From a virus (Duplodnaviria; Caudoviricetes), in IMG/VR virus record IMGVR_UViG_3300020045_018139, positions 1 through 27,078 of that record: a stretch of 27,078 nt of DNA. One strand, 5' to 3'. This document shows positions 3,605-23,266 of the stretch, one piece after another. Under the pieces are notes generated by a model. That model searched no databases. It was not told the DNA's origin and was given only the letters and a program-made list of their open reading frames with translations. A program made the translations under genes and the position numbers. The first letter of the stretch is position 1, and each line of letters begins with the position of its first letter.

Positions 3605-3853
3605 ATGAAAACAGCAGAACGAATTTATAAAGAAGAACGCAAAAAGTGGTTTTTGGATAAACCTCCATACAGCTTGGGTATGCTTGCTTCATCATTCCAT
3701 ATCGAAGCTATGCACATATACGGGCGACAGTGTTTTGAGGCGGGGCGTGAAACCAAAATGGACCCCGATTTTGATCCTGCGTTATCCGACGAAATGGATA
3801 TGTTTATAAGCAAATACGATAATTACGAACAGTGTAAAAACGAACTGAAATGA
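3605..3853 (+). CDS. Hypothetical protein
   Basis: 82-aa ORF; ATGA overlap with the next gene. Confidence 0.7.
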   Translation: MKTAERIYKEERKKWFLDKPPYSLGMLASSFHIEAMHIYGRQCFEAGRETKMDPDFDPALSDEMDMFISKYDNYEQCKNELK

Positions 3854-4254
3854 GATCAATTAAATTCAGAGGCAAGCGCCCAAATTCAGGCAAATGGATA
3901 TACGGACATTTATTTGCAGATGGGATGTTTGCATACATTTTGAATGCAGAATATTTCAAAGCACCGGAATGCTCATGCGAAGTATTACGCGAAACGGTCG
4001 GGCAATTCACAGGTCTGCACGATATGGCCGGGAACGAAATATACGAGGGTGATATTCTGTACTATTCGGAGCATCCGAAATACATTTTGCCGTCCTGCAA
4101 TATGATAGTTTGCTGGGATGATGATAACGCCTGTTTTGGTTACAAAATGGATAGTTTGAATGATTTTTTCAGGTCATTCAATGACCATGACGAATTGAAA
4201 TATGATGTATTAGATCACTGCGAACTAACAGGAAATATTCACGATAATAAATAA
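3850..4254 (+). CDS. YopX family protein (copy 1)
   Basis: MRSIKFRGK..W.YG; TVGQFTGLHD..G.EIYEGDI; C-terminal GNIHD. Confidence 0.9.
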   Translation: MRSIKFRGKRPNSGKWIYGHLFADGMFAYILNAEYFKAPECSCEVLRETVGQFTGLHDMAGNEIYEGDILYYSEHPKYILPSCNMIVCWDDDNACFGYKMDSLNDFFRSFNDHDELKYDVLDHCELTGNIHDNK

Positions 4255-4259
4255 CCCCA

Positions 4260-4583
4260 ATGAACAAACAACAATTTACCACAATCACCGACTGGCAGAA
4301 CAAGACCTTCCCAACCGCTACGGCAAGATCCGCGACCGAACACCTGCGCGAAGAAGTCGAAGAACTAGCCGACGATTTACGGTGCAAGTCGGGCAGCGTA
4401 GCAAAAGAGATTGCCGACTGTTTTATACTGCTTTACGCTATCGCCCACAAGTGCGGGTTGGATTACGAAACGCTAACCCAGGCGATTGATGAGAAAATGA
4501 ATATCAACTACGCAAGGAAATGGCAAAAGCCAGCGGGGAACGGAGTTATTAACCATGTAAGAAACGAAGATGAAAACATTTAA
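4260..4583 (+). CDS. DUF550/MazG-like dNTP pyrophosphohydrolase (copy 1)
   Basis: W..KTF; HLREEVEEL; EIADCFILL; KM.IN..RKW. Confidence 0.8.
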   Translation: MNKQQFTTITDWQNKTFPTATARSATEHLREEVEELADDLRCKSGSVAKEIADCFILLYAIAHKCGLDYETLTQAIDEKMNINYARKWQKPAGNGVINHVRNEDENI

Positions 4584-5430: not shown

Positions 5431-5682
5431 ATGACACAAAAAGAAATTGAAAGCATTAGCTTAGATATTACACTACTAATGCAGACCATACTGGACGTAT
5501 CCGCAACATCCGAAGAGACGGCAAATAAAGCCATAACATTTGCTATGCAATTTTTGAAAAATAATCCAAAAATAAAAGAGCATGTCGGAGAACTGATTGG
5601 GTCTTATAGCGCGGATGACCCAAACATGGATTTCTTGTGGGACATACATATAGAATGGCTTAAAAACTGGGACAAATCATGA
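5431..5682 (+). CDS. Hypothetical protein
   Basis: 83-aa ORF, ATGA overlap with the next gene. Confidence 0.7.
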   Translation: MTQKEIESISLDITLLMQTILDVSATSEETANKAITFAMQFLKNNPKIKEHVGELIGSYSADDPNMDFLWDIHIEWLKNWDKS

Positions 5683-6029
5683 GAGACATAAAATTCAGGG
5701 GCCGACGAATAGATGGCGGGCAGTGGGTGTATGGGTACTACGTAGTGGACCCGTTGGGTCGTAGCAGGATTTATTGCAAGCCTTTCCCTAAAGCTTCGAG
5801 CAATACCTATTATATGGTGGACCCGGAGACGGTGGGGCAATTTATCGGACTGAAGGACCAGGTTGAATCCGACATATACGAAGGAGACAGGTGCATGACA
5901 GATGCAGGTAATATTGTTTCATTTGAGTATAAAAACGGAATGTTTGTAGTTGTACACAATGAACACTGGTACGAGTCTGCAGCAAAGATGGCCTATTGGT
6001 GTAAAGTAATTGGAAACATTCACGAATAA
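5679..6029 (+). CDS. YopX family protein (copy 2)
   Basis: MRDIKFRGR..WVYG; VDPETVGQFIGLKD..IYEGD; C-terminal VIGNIHE. Confidence 0.9.
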   Translation: MRDIKFRGRRIDGGQWVYGYYVVDPLGRSRIYCKPFPKASSNTYYMVDPETVGQFIGLKDQVESDIYEGDRCMTDAGNIVSFEYKNGMFVVVHNEHWYESAAKMAYWCKVIGNIHE

Positions 6030-6039
6030 TTTAAAATCA

Positions 6040-6471
6040 ATGAACAAAAAACAATTTGAAGAAGTAACCAAGTGGCAGGACAAGACTTTCACTCATACTA
6101 CGGCTACATCGTTGCTGGAGCATTTAAAACAGGAGGTGGACGAACTGTTGGAGTCTGTCGAAAGGGTGGACGGGATGCATGAATCGGAGATGTCCGATTG
6201 CCTTATTCTTCTATTCGGGGTGGCAAACAAGCTGGGTATGGATTATGGGGCATTAGCTCGCAGTGTGGATGGCAAGATGGTCATCAACAAGGGTAGAACC
6301 TGGCAGAAACCAAAAGAAAACGGAGTTGTGAACCATGTAAAAGAAGCCTTGGATTGTATCTCCTGCAGTGTTTGTTTTAGGTCCTATCCATCAAGTGGGA
6401 GATTAATGTGCGGCATACGCCAAGCAACTGTGGCCGAAAACGGACTTTGCGCTTTATTCCTCAAACGATGA
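6040..6471 (+). CDS. DUF550/MazG-like pyrophosphohydrolase (copy 2) with Cys-rich C-terminal extension
   Basis: Start reassigned to ATG 6040 (MNKKQF) by homology to copy 1; HLKQEVDEL, EMSDCLILL; tail CISCSVC..C..C. Confidence 0.8.
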   Translation: MNKKQFEEVTKWQDKTFTHTTATSLLEHLKQEVDELLESVERVDGMHESEMSDCLILLFGVANKLGMDYGALARSVDGKMVINKGRTWQKPKENGVVNHVKEALDCISCSVCFRSYPSSGRLMCGIRQATVAENGLCALFLKR

Positions 6472-7343: not shown

Positions 7344-7408
7344 TGTTAAATAAATGCCACTTTATTTAACAATGGTAGTATCAATACAGAAATAATGTCG
7401 TATATTTG
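7344..7408 (+). promoter_or_regulatory. Operator-like IR plus -7 promoter (copy 2)
   Basis: TGTTAAATAAA-N6-TTTATTTAACA (7344-7371); TATATTTG at 7401-7408. Confidence 0.75.
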
Positions 7409-7426
7409 CACTTCTAAACTAACACT

Positions 7427-7588
7427 ATGGAAAAGACGTATTCATTATCGGAGCTGAGGGACATCGCCTGCAAGTTTGCCATGTACTACTCTGACGAGTG
7501 CCTTGAGGTAGTTGATGAGGAAATAGAGGACAGCACCGGATTCCCTATCGAAATGACTTTTGATAAATTCCTTAAAACAGAACTTTGA
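7427..7588 (+). CDS. Small acidic hypothetical protein (53 aa, not in ORF track)
   Basis: MEKTYSLSELRDIACK...FLKTEL*; directly after the promoter; TGATG coupling to the next ORF. Confidence 0.7.
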   Translation: MEKTYSLSELRDIACKFAMYYSDECLEVVDEEIEDSTGFPIEMTFDKFLKTEL

Positions 7589-7815
7589 TGGACGTATTTG
7601 AAATTCATGTTAAACAAACCTTATTCCGCCGGCCTATGCCAGACTATAAATACCTAAACCCCAAATCACAGGGCAAGCCAAAGTTGGGAATGCGGGATAT
7701 GGATCAACGGGTTTTCTTTGAAAGACCAAAAACAAGATCGACAGTAAAATCATTTGGATACAATTATAACCCATGGGTCGAACACACCCTGGGTGGCCGA
7801 AAATATCCAGGATAA
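7588..7815 (+). CDS. Basic hypothetical protein
   Basis: ATG at 7588 overlaps the previous stop; 75 aa. Confidence 0.55.
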   Translation: MDVFEIHVKQTLFRRPMPDYKYLNPKSQGKPKLGMRDMDQRVFFERPKTRSTVKSFGYNYNPWVEHTLGGRKYPG

Positions 7816-7828
7816 TTTTTAAAGATAA

Positions 7829-8114
7829 TGGGCAATCGATGATCTCATTTGCAAGAATGTTTGGACCTGGTTTCGAATACCAGCATCTCCACCAATCTGC
7901 GCTAAGTGCGTAATCACCGGAAGTTAGGTACTATAGATGTAGATGCAAACCTTCCGGAATTGTTACAAGGGGGTGAAAGGATTTGACAGCATATCGAGGG
8001 ATGAAGGAGAAAGCCCAGGCCACATAAATGGCAAATCAATACCAATGTATACTTCCCAGCGTAAAGCTGCGTAGTGTGCCGTCTTGCCGGGGGAACGAAA
8101 TCCCCCGGTTTTTT
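7829..8114 (+). ncRNA. ssrA: Circularly permuted (two-piece) tmRNA
   Basis: GGAC-CTGGT-TTCGAAT-ACCAG-CATCTCC-A-CCA (7863-7894) precedes GGGGGTG-AAAGGATTTGAC (7969-7987); the two ends pair as a 7-bp acceptor stem with G3.U70; resume context ATAAAT-GGC, tag GKSIPMYTSQRKAA* (8030-8074); 5' boundary approximate. Confidence 0.88.
8087..8114 (+). terminator. Rho-independent terminator ending the tmRNA coding piece
   Basis: CCGGGGGA-acgaaa-TCCCCCGG followed by T6. Confidence 0.9.
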
Positions 8115-8128
8115 AATAAAATATCATT

Positions 8129-8887
8129 ATGGAAGAGTTAGTTGTTAATCCTGGATCCACTATAGTTGTTTGGTTTTCATGTGGGGCTGCTTCAGCGGTA
8201 GCAGCCAAAAAGACTATCGAATTATACGGGGATACCTGTACTATCATAGTGGTAAACAACCCAGTAATCGAAGAGGACCAAGATAACAGGCGATTCTTGC
8301 TAGATGTCGAAAAATGGATAGGGCAGCCCATACTGGTATGTGGGAACAAAAACTTCCCGAACAATTCTGCTGTAGAGATCTGGAACAAGAGAAAATATAT
8401 GTCTGGCGTTAATGGAGCTCCATGCACTTCTGAGCTTAAAAAAGAGGCCAGATACCAATTTGAGCTTACGCATAAAATAGATTATCATGTTTTGGGGTTC
8501 ACCGCCGAGGAGCTCGGCAGGCACGATAACTTCGTCTTTGGAGAAAGGGAGAATTTACTCCCCGTGCTAATAACTCTCGGCATACATAAAAACGATTGTT
8601 ACAGCATAGTTGAACAGGCCGATATTCGCTTACCTATATCATACATACAGGGATACCCAAATGCTAATTGTAAGGGATGCGTAAAAGCTACATCTCCTAC
8701 ATATTGGAACCATGTAAGGAAAGTTGACCCTGAAGTTTTTATGGCCAGGGCTCTGCAAAGTAGAGAGATTGGGTGTAAGCTAACAAGATATAAGGGCAAG
8801 AGGTTATTCCTTGACGAACTGCCGCCTGATGCTAAGGGTCATAAAATGAAATCATATGAGTGCGGGATATTCTGTAATACAAAATAA
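8129..8887 (+). CDS. PP-loop / PAPS-reductase-like (adenine nucleotide alpha-hydrolase) protein, probable Fe-S
   Basis: VWFSCGAASA PP-loop variant; APCT.ELK; GY.NANCKGCVK; C-terminal ECGIFC. Confidence 0.75.
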   Translation: MEELVVNPGSTIVVWFSCGAASAVAAKKTIELYGDTCTIIVVNNPVIEEDQDNRRFLLDVEKWIGQPILVCGNKNFPNNSAVEIWNKRKYMSGVNGAPCTSELKKEARYQFELTHKIDYHVLGFTAEELGRHDNFVFGERENLLPVLITLGIHKNDCYSIVEQADIRLPISYIQGYPNANCKGCVKATSPTYWNHVRKVDPEVFMARALQSREIGCKLTRYKGKRLFLDELPPDAKGHKMKSYECGIFCNTK

Positions 8888-8890
8888 AAC

Positions 8891-8989
8891 ATGTCCACAT
8901 ACCCACTTAACAATAACGACGGCCTAAAGCTGATCATCCTACTATTGCTGATGTTTGTACTCATGGTACTGTTCAAACTTTCCCCGTAA
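8891..8989 (+). CDS. Small membrane peptide (32 aa, not in ORF track)
   Basis: MSTYPLNNNDGLKLIILLLLMFVLMVLFKLSP*; fills the intergenic gap. Confidence 0.5.
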   Translation: MSTYPLNNNDGLKLIILLLLMFVLMVLFKLSP

Positions 8990-14332: not shown

Positions 14333-14498
14333 TGGGGTGGAGGGAGTTAGTACTCCATACAAGAACATAAAGAGTATTTACAACGACCTTATTGAAGGCC
14401 GGCATGTGTACTCTTATTTTGCCATGGCCGCTATTTTGAGGCGTACTGGAAAATTTAACCGGTTTGGTATAACGATTGAAAAATCCGAGATAAAATGA
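14298..14498 (+). CDS. Small basic hypothetical protein
   Basis: 66 aa; ATGA coupling to the recombinase. Confidence 0.6.
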   Translation: MGSKRIYLVTTNGVEGVSTPYKNIKSIYNDLIEGRHVYSYFAMAAILRRTGKFNRFGITIEKSEIK

Positions 14499-15280
14499 AA
14501 TACGTTTCGTACCTAAGAGTATCCACCAAAAAACAGGGCGGAGACGGTCTTGGCATTAGCGCACAGCGAAGCATTGTGGAAAAACAGGCCGAGCACCATG
14601 AGATCATAATGGAGTTCATAGAGGTGGAAAGCGGTACCAAAGGAGATAGACCCGTGCTGGCCGAAGCTCTGTTATTGTGCAGGACTACCGGGGCTACTTT
14701 GCTGGTGGCCAAAATAGACCGGCTTTACCGTAATGTTTATTTTACGGCCAAGCTCATGGAATCGAACGTGAACTTCGTTTGTTGTGATATGCCGTTCGCG
14801 GACAAGATGACCATACAAATATTTGCCGTTCTGGCAGAATGGGAAGCTAAACGAATTTCCGAGCGTACCAAAGCCGCCCTGGCAGAAGTAAAGATCCACG
14901 GATCTAAATCAGGGTTGCCGGTAGGGACTACATATGGGTCGCGTAAATTCTCCCAGGTAGGCGTTGGGGCCAAGTATGCCAAAGCCAAAAGAAACCCTGT
15001 GAACCGTATGGCGTTCGCTTTCATAAAAGAACTGAAGGCCGGAAAAATGAGCTCTGAAAAGATCGCTCGCAAACTAAACGACGCCGGGTATCTTACCGAT
15101 CGGGAAAAACCGTTTACGGCGGTGATAGTAAACTACGTGTACCGGTTATTCGAGTCGGAAGTGATCGAGCGGAAGATAAACGATGGTATACGGTTGAAGC
15201 CTGTAATGATAGAAGAAATGTCTTCTCATGCAGCGTATAACAAAAGAGTGGAAGCGTATCAAAAAACTTTAGCGGATTAA
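14495..15280 (+). CDS. Serine recombinase (resolvase family)
   Basis: YLRVST..Q catalytic motif, ESG, KIDRLYR, E..RISERTK; C-terminal IARKLN..G helix-turn-helix-like region. Confidence 0.93.
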   Translation: MKYVSYLRVSTKKQGGDGLGISAQRSIVEKQAEHHEIIMEFIEVESGTKGDRPVLAEALLLCRTTGATLLVAKIDRLYRNVYFTAKLMESNVNFVCCDMPFADKMTIQIFAVLAEWEAKRISERTKAALAEVKIHGSKSGLPVGTTYGSRKFSQVGVGAKYAKAKRNPVNRMAFAFIKELKAGKMSSEKIARKLNDAGYLTDREKPFTAVIVNYVYRLFESEVIERKINDGIRLKPVMIEEMSSHAAYNKRVEAYQKTLAD

Positions 15281-19049: not shown

Positions 19050-19748
19050 ATGGAGCAATACGATTTAAGGGGGTGCATGTTCGATGTGTTCGGGCTGCCT
19101 TCCGGGGTCATAATTTTAAACAAATTCCCCAAACTGGCTATTTTCCCGGAATTCATCGCGCCGGTTAAGTCCGACCGCAATAAAATCATCAGGTACATAG
19201 TTGCGGTGTACGACAAGCGAGGTTTAAGGGTGTACGAGCAGAATGTACCCAAACGCAAGCGCATAGCCGCAGAGATCGCCGGATGGGCTCCAAATGACAA
19301 GGGCGAATTTCCGGCAGCCGTCAGGGAGATAATCGAGGGCAAGAGCAAAACGGTAAACCGGATGATCGTCCGGTATTGCAAGATGCACAAATCTCCCCGG
19401 TACTCCGCTCTGGTCGGAATGGAAGAAACGTTTTATTCTATCCTGGACAGGATGGTGGATTCCGACACGGAAACAAAGTCTACCGAGTACACCATGTTCA
19501 AGCAGCTCGAAACCGAAATCGAGGACAGGGCGATAGAATTCCTTAACGGTGACACCAACAGGGAAATCATCCAACAGGTCTACGAGGATATCGAATTGGA
19601 ACGGTTAGAACTCCGTCCTGAGGATATCGCCAAGAAAGTGAAAGCAGGCAAAAACCCTGTGGACGTAAGCCCGTACAACGGGTATTCACCCGAAAAACTA
19701 AGGCTAATCATCGCCCAGGAAGAAGAAGATAGCGAGGGAGGATACTAA
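19050..19748 (+). CDS. Hypothetical protein; candidate small terminase by position only
   Basis: Start reassigned to ATG 19050 after terminator/promoter; TAATG coupling to the large terminase. Confidence 0.65.
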   Translation: MEQYDLRGCMFDVFGLPSGVIILNKFPKLAIFPEFIAPVKSDRNKIIRYIVAVYDKRGLRVYEQNVPKRKRIAAEIAGWAPNDKGEFPAAVREIIEGKSKTVNRMIVRYCKMHKSPRYSALVGMEETFYSILDRMVDSDTETKSTEYTMFKQLETEIEDRAIEFLNGDTNREIIQQVYEDIELERLELRPEDIAKKVKAGKNPVDVSPYNGYSPEKLRLIIAQEEEDSEGGY

Positions 19749-22700
19749 TGTTACGTAGCGAGGCAATAAAAGTATACGAAGATATAGTCGATAAATCTAT
19801 CCTGATACAATACCAGGATGCGGATACCCGGTTTTGCGTAAACGACAACGACCCCGACCTGGAGAAAATAACCATATCGCTTCCCAGTACCCCCGAGTGG
19901 CATCTGATCGCCAATTTTGGCAAACACAACAGACTGCAGAAGTTCGTTAAGGAGAAGATGCCCTCCAGGCTCGTAGAGCTCCAACGTGACGTAACCAACC
20001 GGCTAAGGGATACCCGTAAGACCGGGAAGAACGAAGTGCTCACTGTGCAGCGCATTTACGACGAGATGTGGGAAGTGTTGAATAAACGCCAGCGAGAATA
20101 CGTAAACGAGATAGAATGGATCAAGCTTCAAATATTCCACTGCATGAACGGGTACTGGGTTTTCATAAACGGGAAACCTACATACCTAGATGGATGGCAT
20201 TACAGGTTCCTTAACTTTTGGGACATGACCGATGCGGAGGTGGATTACAGGGACAGGGACCGGAGATGGTTTTTGTTTGCCAGGTACATCTACACTACCC
20301 GAGAAGACGCGAACGGAGTCGATATAGGCCACAGGACTTTCTTTGGGTTTATCTATCCGAAACATCGTCGCGATGGGGCTACGCATAAAAGCTTGAACAT
20401 CGGGTATGACATCATGAGCCGTACGCTCGGGAACGTGATCGGTGGTATTCAGAGTTTTGATGACGACAATGCTTCCGAACATTACAAGAACAAAGTTATA
20501 CCGGCATTCAAGAACATGCCGTTCTTCTTAAAACCGGTGTGGAAAGGGTCTCAGGCTCCCCAATCCGAACTCCATTTCACCAGGGTGGACAACACTATTG
20601 GTGATGAGCTTGGATCTAAGATAAATTATGCTACCACAGCTCATAGGAAATTCTATGATGGAAAGAAGCTATATTACTATCAATCAGAGGAATCTGGGAA
20701 ATGTCTAGGTTTTGGAACTTTGGTTAAAATGTATGATGGATCCAATAAGCCTGTACAAGATATTGTGAGTGGGGATATGTTGGCTGGGGATGATTTAACT
20801 TCAAGAACAGTTATGTCTACCACTATAGGCAGGGGCGACATGTACAAGATAACTCCCAAAAAGGGCGTAGAGTGGACATGTAACGGAGACCATATACTTG
20901 TACTTAAAGCCTGTGCCGGTAAAGGATATGACAATGGGGATACGGTAGAGGTTAGTGTTAATGATTTTGTTTCCTGGGCTCCAAGTAAAAAGAAAAATTT
21001 TAGTCTCTATAAAGCGGGTATTGATTTTAAAGAAAATAATCACTGTTTAGATCCATACTTTTTAGGGTTATGGCTAGGAGATGGAAGCGTTAACAAGGCG
21101 TCTATATCTAAGCCTGATATAGAAATAAGAAATTATGTTGATGATTTTGCTAAAAAAAGATGGCTGTTTACCCGGTATGATGGCATGACTACGCATATAT
21201 GCGGAAGCCAGGACCGACCAGTTATGGCAACTATGTCCAATGGTGACATACGGGTCTTCCCTACCATATTATCAGCCTCGATAGAAATGGGGACTACTAA
21301 GGCGAAGATATTGTGGGCTGATAAGAAGCGGTCAAAATCAGATGGAGTTGAATATACTATTGGAGAAAAGATAGATAATAGCGTTTTTAGAGACCTAAAC
21401 AGCCTGGGAGTTATTAATAATAAACATATTCCATCCGAGTATCTGAAGGACTCTAGGGCTAACAGATTGTTCTTATTAGCGGGGTTGTTAGATTCAGATG
21501 GGTATATGAAGCCAGGAGACAGAACCATGGCTTATGAGATAACTCAAAAGAACAAACAGCTATCCGATGATATTTTTGAACTATGTAGAAGCTTAGGATT
21601 TAGCATAAGTAGTGTTAATAAAACTGCTAGAATGAAGAGGCCTGATGGGTCTGTTTATGAGTGTCTGGTTTACAGGATGTCTATTTATGGGAATAACCTA
21701 TTCGAAGTGCCTTGTATAATACCCAGAAAAAAGGCAGCATTTATTAAAAATAAGGCCGGTAAAGACCCTATAAGGTCAGGGTTTACCATAGAGCCTATAG
21801 GGGTTGGAGATTATTACGGATTCACAATTGACGGGAACAGACGATTCTTGCTTGGCGATTACACTGTTACCCATAATACGTTACTAGAAAATATACTAGA
21901 AAGATGGGATGTTGTCAAGCAAACATTGGGGCAAGGTGCTGGGTCTATTATCAATGGATTCTCAATTCACCCTACCACTGTGGCCGACATGAAGGTGGGC
22001 GGCGGTAAGAATTTCTCCGACCTTTGTGACAATTCTAAGTTTTACGACAGGAACCCGGAAACCGGTCAGACCAAATCCGGACTGGCCAGGCTGTTTATTC
22101 CTGGGTATGATGGGCTGGAGGGGTTTATTGGCCCGTTCGGGGAATCGATCATCGAGGACCCGACTCCACTGCAGGCCGAGTTCATTGGTCGTAATATGGG
22201 GGCCAAAAAGTTTATCCAAAGCCAGTTGGACGAGTACCTGAAAAAAGGCGACCCAGAATCGATGAGGTCGTACAGGGAATTCCAAAGGCTGTATCCTACC
22301 CAGTATGTAGATTGTTTCAGGGATCAGGCCGGAGATGTCGGTTTCGATATAGAAAAGCTGGATACAGCCATAGCGAGATTAGGAAGAGAGGCACTTGATG
22401 AAAGTCGCCCACCAACTGCTACAGGTAATTTACTTTATATAGTTGACGGGGAGTCGAATCCGCTGAGCGCAAAAGAATTTTTATCCCTCAATTATGACCG
22501 TTCATCCAAGAACTGCAGAGTTGAGTGGTTCCCGGATAAATCGGGCAGATGGAAGTTATCAAAAGTGTTGGGTCCGCAGGAATCAAACCTTAGGTTCAAG
22601 GCTGACGGAACGTGGTTCCCAACACATCCGTTCAGGTTTACGCTGGGAGCCGACCCATTCCAGTTCTTGAAACATGGTGACGCAGAGAAGCGCGAAGATA

Positions 22701-23266
22701 AATCCAGGTTATCCAAAGGCGGGATATCTGTTTTTTGGGAAAGGGACTTCAGTATAGATCCCCCGGCTAAGGACGTAACGTTCTGGGAGTCGTACAGGTT
22801 TATCATGACGTACGACAACAGAGCGGACGAAGATGACGAGTATGCCGAGGAGGTGTTGATGACGGCTATCTATACCGGCGCCGAGGTTTATCCGGAGCAG
22901 AACATAAAGCTTATCTGGAAGCATTTTGTCAAAAGAGGTTTTGAGGGATATTTAAAGTATCAAATAGACGAAGCTACTGGAAAGAGAAAGGATCATCCTG
23001 GTTTTTATTCACTTACCGAATCCAAACAAGATCTTTTCAATGCTATAAAGCGGTACATATATCACCACTCTACCAGGGAGCGGCATATCGATTTCCTGAA
23101 ACAGTGCCGGCAGATAAAAGGGATGGATTACATGACGGACTATGACTTGTTGGTAGCCTGTGGGGGCGCATTACTTGGCTCTCAGATCGTGAGATACGAA
23201 ACGCAAGCTGCTGATAATCAAGAAGTAGAAGACCTAATGAAGGGGATGCCTATTTACACGTACTAA
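19748..23266 (+). CDS. Large terminase subunit (crAss-like) containing an intein
   Basis: GYWVFING..TY..G.HY.FL; Walker A-like KHRRDGAT; YDGKKL...EESGK; TKSGL..LFIP; RNase H-like LGADPF; upstream of portal. Confidence 0.9.
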   Translation: MLRSEAIKVYEDIVDKSILIQYQDADTRFCVNDNDPDLEKITISLPSTPEWHLIANFGKHNRLQKFVKEKMPSRLVELQRDVTNRLRDTRKTGKNEVLTVQRIYDEMWEVLNKRQREYVNEIEWIKLQIFHCMNGYWVFINGKPTYLDGWHYRFLNFWDMTDAEVDYRDRDRRWFLFARYIYTTREDANGVDIGHRTFFGFIYPKHRRDGATHKSLNIGYDIMSRTLGNVIGGIQSFDDDNASEHYKNKVIPAFKNMPFFLKPVWKGSQAPQSELHFTRVDNTIGDELGSKINYATTAHRKFYDGKKLYYYQSEESGKCLGFGTLVKMYDGSNKPVQDIVSGDMLAGDDLTSRTVMSTTIGRGDMYKITPKKGVEWTCNGDHILVLKACAGKGYDNGDTVEVSVNDFVSWAPSKKKNFSLYKAGIDFKENNHCLDPYFLGLWLGDGSVNKASISKPDIEIRNYVDDFAKKRWLFTRYDGMTTHICGSQDRPVMATMSNGDIRVFPTILSASIEMGTTKAKILWADKKRSKSDGVEYTIGEKIDNSVFRDLNSLGVINNKHIPSEYLKDSRANRLFLLAGLLDSDGYMKPGDRTMAYEITQKNKQLSDDIFELCRSLGFSISSVNKTARMKRPDGSVYECLVYRMSIYGNNLFEVPCIIPRKKAAFIKNKAGKDPIRSGFTIEPIGVGDYYGFTIDGNRRFLLGDYTVTHNTLLENILERWDVVKQTLGQGAGSIINGFSIHPTTVADMKVGGGKNFSDLCDNSKFYDRNPETGQTKSGLARLFIPGYDGLEGFIGPFGESIIEDPTPLQAEFIGRNMGAKKFIQSQLDEYLKKGDPESMRSYREFQRLYPTQYVDCFRDQAGDVGFDIEKLDTAIARLGREALDESRPPTATGNLLYIVDGESNPLSAKEFLSLNYDRSSKNCRVEWFPDKSGRWKLSKVLGPQESNLRFKADGTWFPTHPFRFTLGADPFQFLKHGDAEKREDKSRLSKGGISVFWERDFSIDPPAKDVTFWESYRFIMTYDNRADEDDEYAEEVLMTAIYTGAEVYPEQNIKLIWKHFVKRGFEGYLKYQIDEATGKRKDHPGFYSLTESKQDLFNAIKRYIYHHSTRERHIDFLKQCRQIKGMDYMTDYDLLVACGGALLGSQIVRYETQAADNQEVEDLMKGMPIYTY
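20702..21877 (+). mobile_element. Intein (392 aa) with LAGLIDADG homing endonuclease
   Basis: K|CLGFGTLVKMYDG start; block B CNGDH; LGLWLGDG and LAGLLDSDG; ends YYGFTIDG..FLL..TVTHN|T; visibly more AT-rich than the exteins. Confidence 0.95.

Follow-up and report, generated by a model that had tools for sequence, protein, structure and literature searches.

The 27,078-nt stretch of viral DNA analysed here, hereafter the window, carries at 7829-8109 a gene that, by sequence inspection, encodes a half-sized, permuted tmRNA, the RNA that frees stalled ribosomes, with the 3' end of the RNA preceding its 5' end. The tmRNA 3' end (7863-7894) lies 74 nt 5' of the tmRNA 5' end at 7969 and comprises GGAC (7863-66), a T-stem CTGGT/ACCAG with its loop at 7872-78, CATCTCC (7884-90), A73 (7891) and CCA (7892-94), and the 5' end consists of GGGGGTG (7969-75) followed by GGATTTGAC up to 7987. 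Together they form an acceptor stem of 7 bp that carries G3.U70 and the discriminator A73, with a T-arm and a D-loop without a stem, and the helix-2 pairings AGCAT/ATGTT, GGATGA/TCATTT and GCCCA/TGGGC all form in the sequence. Each element to which an earlier note on this DNA had assigned coordinates or pairings was found at its place, and the miniature, permuted, two-piece gene proposed there is borne out by the gene order, acceptor stem, T-arm, helix 2 and tag frame; the predicted pieces measure 66 and 141 nt, where about 66 and 140 nt had been expected. The features of the locus are as follows.

7401-7408, + strand: promoter-like site TATATTTG, intergenic, 19 nt 5' of a small ORF; candidate precursor promoter (presumed use)
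7788-7811, + strand: hairpin followed by an AU-rich stretch, 5' of the acceptor piece; candidate 5' processing site (presumed use)
7829-7894, + strand: acceptor piece, with helix-2 3' strand, GGAC, T-arm with U53-A61, acceptor 3' strand with U70, A73 and encoded CCA
7834-7843, + strand: bulged strand of a predicted kink-turn (C7837, bulge GAT at 7838-40, G7841-A7842), partner 8006-8010
7895-7968, + strand: intervening sequence of 74 nt with two hairpins, predicted to be removed in maturation
7969-8109, + strand: coding piece, with acceptor 5' strand carrying G3, D-loop, helix-2 5' strand, resume region, tag and 3' pseudoknot/terminator
8006-8017, + strand: non-bulged strand of the predicted kink-turn (G8006, G8007-A8008, G8009) and distal helix-2 stem
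8018-8032, + strand: 12-nt linker at the usual PK1 site, with a possible 4-bp hairpin GCCA/TGGC over the resume codon
8030-8074, + strand: tag frame GKSIPMYTSQRKAA and stop, with a helix-5-like stem over the stop codon
8080-8109, + strand: predicted H-type pseudoknot, CGT 8080-82 with ACG 8095-97 in the loop of a 9-bp hairpin (8086-94/8101-09)
8086-8115, + strand: intrinsic-terminator-like hairpin and T-run; near-strain contigs diverge at 8115

The site at 7401 is, as we assume, a Bacteroidota promoter motif of the TAnnTTTG type. Sites of this type stand before several genes of the window, and the related TATCTTTG likewise precedes several others. Folding gave no support for a structured RNA at 7600-7830 (z -0.5). 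The tag ORF expected after the 5' end is present as an open frame with a resume context and a stop, ends in Ala-Ala, and most closely resembles the tags GKSVEMYPTQRKAA and GKTVDMYPTQRKAA of the relatives L434 and L440.

The Rfam and ARAGORN check proposed in the earlier note gave a divided result. In a cmscan E-value search, the Rfam model RF04321 (tmRNA_permuted) matched 7831-8074 with 45.4 bits (E 1.1e-7; gathering score 47), and ARAGORN -ps95 called a permuted tmRNA with the same tag, whereas Rfam at the gathering score yielded no match at the locus and ARAGORN at default settings missed the tmRNA in the window. Three relatives score above the RF04321 cut-off (L434, 55.1; L413, 63.1; L347, 71.7 bits), and ARAGORN at default settings detects 38/48 members of the family described below; some family copies, the window's included, thus escape default ARAGORN and score below the Rfam cut-off. 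With the lineage model RF01850 the window reaches 25.4 against a cut-off of 84, and with RF01849 and RF01851 it scores lower still, while all 26 alphaproteobacterial genomes tested give 118-164 bits on RF04321; neither the model score nor the PK1 upstream of the tag that define the alpha, beta and cyanobacterial lineages is found here. A pattern of T-arm, acceptor strand and ACCA occurs once in the window and in none of 200 shuffles. The predicted fold of the precursor contains the acceptor stem, T-arm and nested helix 2 (z -2.7), and so does the cofold of the separate 66- and 141-nt pieces. When the gene was compared by blastn with 50,697 phage records, the only matches were 20-39 nt long.

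The viral record is a 27-kb fragment, 38% complete, with genes for thymidylate synthase, tail proteins, an intein-bearing terminase (PHROG 6681), a portal (PHROG 6547) and a Pfam match to the crAss muzzle domain. The portal matches 85 phage records, 84 of which belong to Flavobacterium, Cellulophaga or Maribacter phages; since it is only 24-27% identical to those of named phages, the host assignment is an indirect one. At this portal identity the terminase, portal and muzzle matches make a placement in Crassvirales or Pervagoviridae conceivable at most. The phage likely infects Bacteroidota, in agreement with the earlier note, and its tRNA domain and Gly resume codon are of the Bacteroidia type. 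The nearest named phages by portal, the Cellulophaga phages Calle and phi38:1, carry one-piece tmRNA, and none of four IMG/VR fragments with PAPS-reductase or portal relatives (20-80% complete) matches RF04321. Elsewhere in the window, a YopX and dATP/dGTP-pyrophosphohydrolase gene pair occurs twice (3850-4583 and 5679-6471), and the terminase large subunit with its Hint/LAGLIDADG intein spans 19748-23266.

Near strains and the wider family

Two near-strain contigs from two DNA runs, X1 and X2, cover the gene. X1 (7780-8115) differs at 4 of 336 positions, one of which alters the tag (S9P) and none of which breaks a pair; X2 (7770-8115) has 18 differences and 8 inserted letters. In X2, the T-stem pair U53-A61 becomes G53-C61 (7871 T>G with 7879 A>C), G5.U68 of the acceptor stem becomes G-C, a G.U pair in spacer hairpin 1 becomes A-U with the pairing retained, the inserted letters sit in the apex of hairpin 2, and the encoded CCA becomes CCT; G3.U70 and the tag are identical to the window's. 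Both contigs retain G3.U70, A73 and the T-arm features, and the single change that both show in the hairpin at 7788-7811 (7809 A>G) retains a G.U pair. X1 and X2 depart from the window at 8115, and X2 resumes at 8891, so that the PAPS-reductase-like gene (8129-8887) lying directly behind the tmRNA terminator is an insertion in the window (8116-8890). A 76-codon ORF upstream (7585-7815) has frame-breaking deletions in X2 and therefore may not code.

X2 also differs in the elbow, where D-loop G18>A occurs jointly with T-loop U55>G. We thus scanned IMG/VR for the G55 T-loop, which about 520 viral stretches match; permuted tmRNAs account for 104 of the 120 loci fetched. Among those fetched, 67 of 86 distinct phage permuted tmRNAs, chosen by the G55 T-loop only, have D-loop AG (A18), whereas all 138 permuted genes with the usual T-loop have GG, a count that the search patterns partly imposed. 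The A18/G55 elbow is also present in 20/20 chromosomal alpha genes. As this combination is common in other tmRNAs, the X2 change is a switch between two natural elbow types, and we regard it, from sequence comparison, as good evidence of selection on the folded RNA. Most of the 104 genes have A18 and the helix-2 kink-turn motif, and some have Gly-start tags such as GNSNFALAA; ARAGORN-based counts may overlook this large pool of G55 phage tmRNAs.

A search with the PK1-less coding piece alone as the pattern gave at least 119 IMG/VR loci (about 170 in all). The upstream acceptor piece is present at 106 of the 119 listed loci, 2 scored as one-piece and 11 as neither. In GTDB the same pattern gave 40 loci, of which 10 are permuted and most of the remainder are chance matches in coding DNA. 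Family statistics were drawn from 48 non-redundant members among the matches listed. All 7 acceptor positions are paired in 48/48 members, and positions 5-7 and the T-stem covary, but these counts are partly circular, since the search filters demanded most acceptor and T-stem pairs and G3.U70, besides partly imposing TTTGAC and a purine resume codon. Helix-2 duplexes with their own partners average -15.2 kcal/mol against -9.8 for swapped partners among the 48, and the own partner ranks first in 18/48, the window tying for first. The 53-61 pair is G-C in 46/48 members, and the window has the non-canonical U53-A61. The distance from the 5' end to the resume codon is 58-70 nt (61 in the window), in comparison with 95-98 nt in Bacteroidia one-piece genes. 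The tags are highly diverse with the terminal Ala retained: 46/48 end in Ala or are cut off by the end of the locus, and 33 end in AA. Conservation and covariation, on which the earlier note had made its reading depend, are thus found in both near strains and family, which hold the acceptor stem and the tag frame with compensatory changes.

Named members include Maribacter phage Panino, the crAssphages cr114_1 and cr60_1, and a Zeaxanthinibacter prophage, and crAss-like phages, like others of Bacteroidota, commonly carry the PK1-less form. A one-piece tmRNA is also present in all five bacterial genomes tested out of the ten GTDB genomes with a family member, which makes the family member an extra copy. 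The copy in Zeaxanthinibacter sp. PT1 sits in a prophage that also has genes for terminase, portal, capsid and integrase, and phage-like genes neighbour three further GTDB members. At the RF04321 cut-off, no chromosomal permuted tmRNA was found in the 151 Bacteroidota genomes searched, the one match being the PT1 prophage; weak RF04321 matches in Bacteroidota genomes overlap a one-piece gene in 11/11 cross-checked cases, and the locus L457 is also one-piece.

Several members show further features near or within the gene. In cr114_1 (L125:739-810) and L348 the tmRNA spacer contains whole tRNA genes, and in the cyanophage-type L061 it contains a tRNA-like sequence. The motif TTCTTTGA, which we take to be boxA-like, stands just 5' of the acceptor piece in 6/48 members (L313, L341, L342, L362, L367 and L406), a tRNA stands directly upstream in 9/48, and a TAnnTTTG site in 6/48. 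At a distance of a few hundred bases 5' of the tmRNA, cr114_1 and cr60_1 carry RAGATH-9 and RAGATH-20 RNAs (L125:215-382; L126:328-429). In the window, spacer positions 7916-7957 form a hairpin interrupted by a four-by-four internal loop, U(U/A)AG facing AAAC, which recurs with covarying flanking stems in L128, L129, L393 and L406, a minority of the family, and is possibly a processing signal; as a general family feature the UUAG/AAAC loop was rejected, a loose pattern matching only 11/95 family rows. An HDV-like ribozyme in the spacer (7895-7901 pairing with 7938-7944) was likewise rejected, because the X2 change at 7897 breaks the pairing and the L129 spacer is too short.

Helix 2, the missing PK1 and a predicted 3' pseudoknot

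PK1, the one tmRNA pseudoknot usually considered important, is absent, as had been anticipated: the stretch between helix 2 and the resume codon is only 12 nt long. The sole candidate for a PK1 substitute at this linker is the 4-bp hairpin overlapping the resume codon, which is possible in 21/48 members and in 12% of shuffles. In E. coli, according to the available text of PMC3968760 and PMC13692277, tagging is reported to need PK1 or a stable substitute, which speaks against a working RNA here; in favour of one, a hairpin was able to stand in for PK1 there, though at times with reduced activity.

Helix 2 of the window contains a kink-turn-type motif, AATC[GAT]GA with GGAG, in which C7837-G8009 is followed by the bulge GAT and the pairs G7841.A8008 and A7842.G8007; two A.A mismatches adjoin it. 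The consensus, which we take to be a stem, a 3-nt bulge, tandem G.A/A.G pairs and a second stem, was counted with an anchored test, as the unanchored version had a high background. The motif is found in 26/48 members of the family, namely in 22/31 members with xK tags, as compared with 180/930 swapped pairs, and in 4/17 other members. On this structural prediction, the helix-2 kink-turn would take the place of PK1 by folding the coding strand back in the direction of the ribosome. Full-text literature searches brought up no description of a tmRNA kink-turn or of a PK1-less permuted tmRNA in Bacteroidota phages.

The earlier note's statement that the gene leaves no room for PK2-4 goes too far, since positions 8080-8109 could form a compact pseudoknot, for which family covariation speaks. 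A strict test is passed by 14/38 members that have the hairpin, compared with 118/1406 swapped and 816/7600 shuffled sequences; 9 further members have no hairpin by the rule used and 2 are cut off. The second stem is only 3 bp, and its variants covary (CGT/ACG in 6 members, CGC/GCG in 4, AGC/GCT in 2, GGC/GCC in 1 and CGG/CCG in 1); a compensating pair change distinguishes the window from its nearest-tag relatives L434 and L440. A generic pseudoknot finder proved loose (32/46 members and 38/184 shuffles), and the 3' region aligned too poorly in MAFFT for pairs to be counted. The terminator of the earlier note is present as a hairpin with a T-run at 8086..8115, but its description requires amendment: as modelled, this hairpin likely also forms a compact H-type 3' pseudoknot, doubling as the terminator hairpin. 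By analogy, this would fit the post-tag pseudoknot of known two-piece tmRNAs as given in the available text of PMC3985003.

Predicted maturation and function

We consider it quite probable that the locus is a PK1-less permuted tmRNA gene of a likely Bacteroidota phage, whose two-piece RNA would be charged with alanine and would carry out rescue and tagging with host SmpB. By comparison with known two-piece tmRNAs, as presented in the accessible parts of PMC11915505 and PMC3985003, a single precursor RNA would be cut by RNase P at 7969 and trimmed at its 3' side to the CCA at 7894. The 5' end near 7829 would be produced by processing, since no promoter-like site lies directly upstream. The products, a 66-nt acceptor piece and a 141-nt coding piece, would be joined through the kinked helix 2, which plausibly gives the geometry that PK1 otherwise supplies. 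As for other two-piece tmRNAs, host AlaRS would then charge the RNA with alanine, and EF-Tu and host SmpB would bring it to stalled ribosomes; no SmpB gene was found in the viral record, which is 38% complete. Translation would resume at GGC 8030 and stop at TAG 8074, adding the tag (A)GKSIPMYTSQRKAA, whose C-terminal Ala-Ala would be recognized by a protease. ClpX recognizes the C-terminal LAA of the usual tag, according to the available text of PMC3968760, and by analogy likely recognizes the RKAA end in the same way.

The most likely purpose would be a cheap additional means of rescuing ribosomes in the infected cell, where host mRNA undergoes cleavage and host tmRNA may be in short supply or degraded; the other purposes considered here are less likely. 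A working RNA might instead direct tagged proteins to a different protease or adaptor, or delay their breakdown, to the advantage of the phage, with the longer, basic and hydrophobic tag changing host proteolysis. The family tags (GK..., GN...DYT..AA) are indeed unlike short Bacteroidia tags such as GENNYALAA, and the window's ends in RKAA instead of a hydrophobic residue and AA, but the great diversity of tags that keep their terminal Ala points more readily to weak constraint than to a new, specific address, and we consider re-routing unlikely. We give still less credence to a decoy role, in which the RNA would titrate SmpB and block trans-translation in the host, as described for the tRNA-domain-only RNA of phage DS6A in the available text of PMC4131195 and PMC11915505: the absence of PK1 would suit it, yet DS6A-type RNAs have no coding part, whereas the open tag frame, the Ala end and the resume context are retained in the family and in both near-strain contigs. 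That the gene is an inactive remnant or attachment-site copy for prophage integration is highly improbable, for although tmRNA genes are common integration sites (PMC11915505, available text) and the window encodes a serine recombinase (14495-15280), the gene is complete and permuted in an order unlike host genes, shows compensatory changes between near strains, and in the PT1 prophage lies about 11 kb from the integrase, with the host gene intact on another contig. The recombinase, also annotated as an invertase, follows the tail-fibre genes.

For the preferred reading, extra rescue by a working RNA, the locus offers a natural minimal tmRNA of about 207 nt, compared with 360-400 nt, and without PK1. 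It makes testable what positions the resume codon once PK1 is gone, and why phages carry tmRNA.

Relation to known tmRNAs and origin

The two-piece tmRNAs of Alphaproteobacteria, Betaproteobacteria and Cyanobacteria (RF01849, RF01850 and RF01851, merged in RF04321) share with the window the permutation at the end of helix 2, the tRNA-like domain, the tag and the post-tag pseudoknot. They typically retain PK1 and PK2, according to the available text of PMC3985003, and those of alphaproteobacteria differ from the window in resuming at about 85 nt, in an Ala start and in the A18/G55 elbow. The marine phage two-piece tmRNAs of the type of Methylophilales phage Melnitz are phage-borne and permuted, like the window's, and the available text of PMC9004378 relates them to alpha, beta/gamma or cyano forms. 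Phage genes of this general type fetched from IMG/VR have, unlike the window, tags that start with Ala, and in most of them a hairpin or pseudoknot precedes the tag. Among Bacteroidia one-piece tmRNAs (RF00023), the D-loop TTTGAC occurs in 19/26, AGC and GTTT of helix 2a in 20 and 19 of 26, and a Gly resume codon in 19/23, and CCA is rarely encoded; in contrast to the window, they are about 360-400 nt long, have PK1, resume at 95-98 nt and carry a GUAA/AGAA loop in place of the kink-turn. The window lacks the one-piece order and the pseudoknot ring of RF00023.

The closest known counterparts include annotated phage genes. The Panino tmRNA (PP540027.1, 27557-27889; RF04321 63.9 bits) is permuted and PK1-less, resumes at 60 nt, has a GK... 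tag and shares the kink-turn motif and the CGT/ACG 3' pseudoknot, but its spacer is 36 nt, its CCA is not fully encoded and it lies within a tRNA cluster. The SsrA RNAs of the Suoliviridae crAssphages cr114_1 (NC_055897.1; 50.9 bits on RF04321) and cr60_1 (NC_055891.1; 40.3 bits) are likewise permuted and miniature with a Gly resume codon; they differ in their GN...DYT..AA tags, longer spacers (with a tRNA inside in cr114_1), 3' pseudoknot geometry and, for the most part, helix-2 loop. The novelty entertained in the earlier note is overstated: two-piece tmRNAs of phages have been reported before, accounting for 53 of the 133 distinct phage tmRNAs in the available text of PMC9004378 (50 of the 53 are aquatic), and the genes of Panino, cr114_1 and cr60_1 are labelled tmRNA in GenBank/RefSeq. 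In the portions available, the Panino paper (PMC11590407) says only 'tmRNA', with the permutation unmentioned, and the Calle paper likewise mentions only 'tmRNA'. A 2025 database counts 79 RefSeq phage tmRNAs and three main bacterial permuted clades (PMC11915505, available text); its File S1 contains no 'Phage' or 'crAss' string, and the database or Table S2 may already hold genes of the cr114_1 type. PMC12386605 does not mention tmRNA.

As to the origin of the permutation, we lean toward a separate permutation of a Bacteroidia one-piece gene. The window carries the Bacteroidia tRNA-domain and resume signature (TTTGAC, AGC/GTTT and a Gly start). Its tRNA domain scores 71.2 bits on a Bacteroidia profile, 28.2 on a phage beta-like and 0.4 on an alpha profile (leave-one-out, 25/26 correct for Bacteroidia), an order that is kept when the pattern-selected positions are omitted (24.0, -4.6 and -23.9). 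Bacteroidia form the nearest non-family group for 29-30/48 members, and a 73-column FastTree places all 48 with 22/23 Bacteroidia genes and with no other phage permuted gene, at a support of 0.64. The window further shares 15/20 letters around the resume codon with L447, a Bacteroidota one-piece gene.

These data also have to be read against descent from one phage-borne permuted pool (beta-like and related genes) sharing the helix-2 kink-turn, in which PK1 was lost and Bacteroidia-type letters were gained by adaptation or host recombination, with no new permutation; we regard this as a real, if less favoured, possibility. The kink-turn is found not only in the 26 family members but also in 46/90 beta-like phage permuted tmRNAs of the Melnitz kind, in the same modal register, and in 68/86 G55-elbow phage tmRNAs among those fetched, compared with 1/26 Bacteroidia one-piece, 0/20 alpha and 0/20 gamma genes; of the Bacillota matches, 6/15 lie in other registers. 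GTT is the commonest bulge in both the family (12/26) and the G55 set (37/68), PK1-less forms with alpha-type tags exist (L058, L068 and L226), and outside the family another phage permuted gene is nearest by tRNA domain for 13/48 members. Moreover, a tRNA domain must fit the host enzymes, so that likeness to Bacteroidia can reflect adaptation as well as descent. On the other hand, a bulge at the helix-2 junction is general in tmRNA, according to the available text of PMC1168896, and 21/26 Bacteroidia genes already have purine-rich mismatches at this junction, so the kink-turn could arise twice. The independent permutation suggested in the earlier note is accordingly only slightly more likely than not: the Bacteroidia-type tRNA domain and Gly resume codon favour it, and a kink-turn that is common in phage permuted tmRNAs and rare in Bacteroidia one-piece genes tells against it. 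We offer only tentatively, as a rather doubtful extension, that phages have a two-piece architecture of their own, in which the helix-2 kink-turn replaces both the pseudoknot ring and PK1, with the Bacteroidota-phage family as its minimal form (about 200 nt); this would be a fourth bacterial-type permutation, confined to viruses, whose tags take over host rescue and proteolysis during infection.

Two members belong to cultured systems, Panino on Maribacter and the prophage in Zeaxanthinibacter PT1. The latter spans about 90 kb (G001:C1, about 907000-998000) and, along with the miniature tmRNA, encodes tRNAs, an integrase, a protein of 2877 aa, and a terminase and a portal of crAss-type families. 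Its portal could not be aligned to the window's (pairwise E 0.22; no tblastn matches), so that the PT1 prophage is only a distant relative. Apart from the family, a second one-piece tmRNA of 415 nt (95.8 bits) was observed in a gammaproteobacterial MAG (L449, G005:C68:4190-4604), where it is possibly misbinned or phage-borne.
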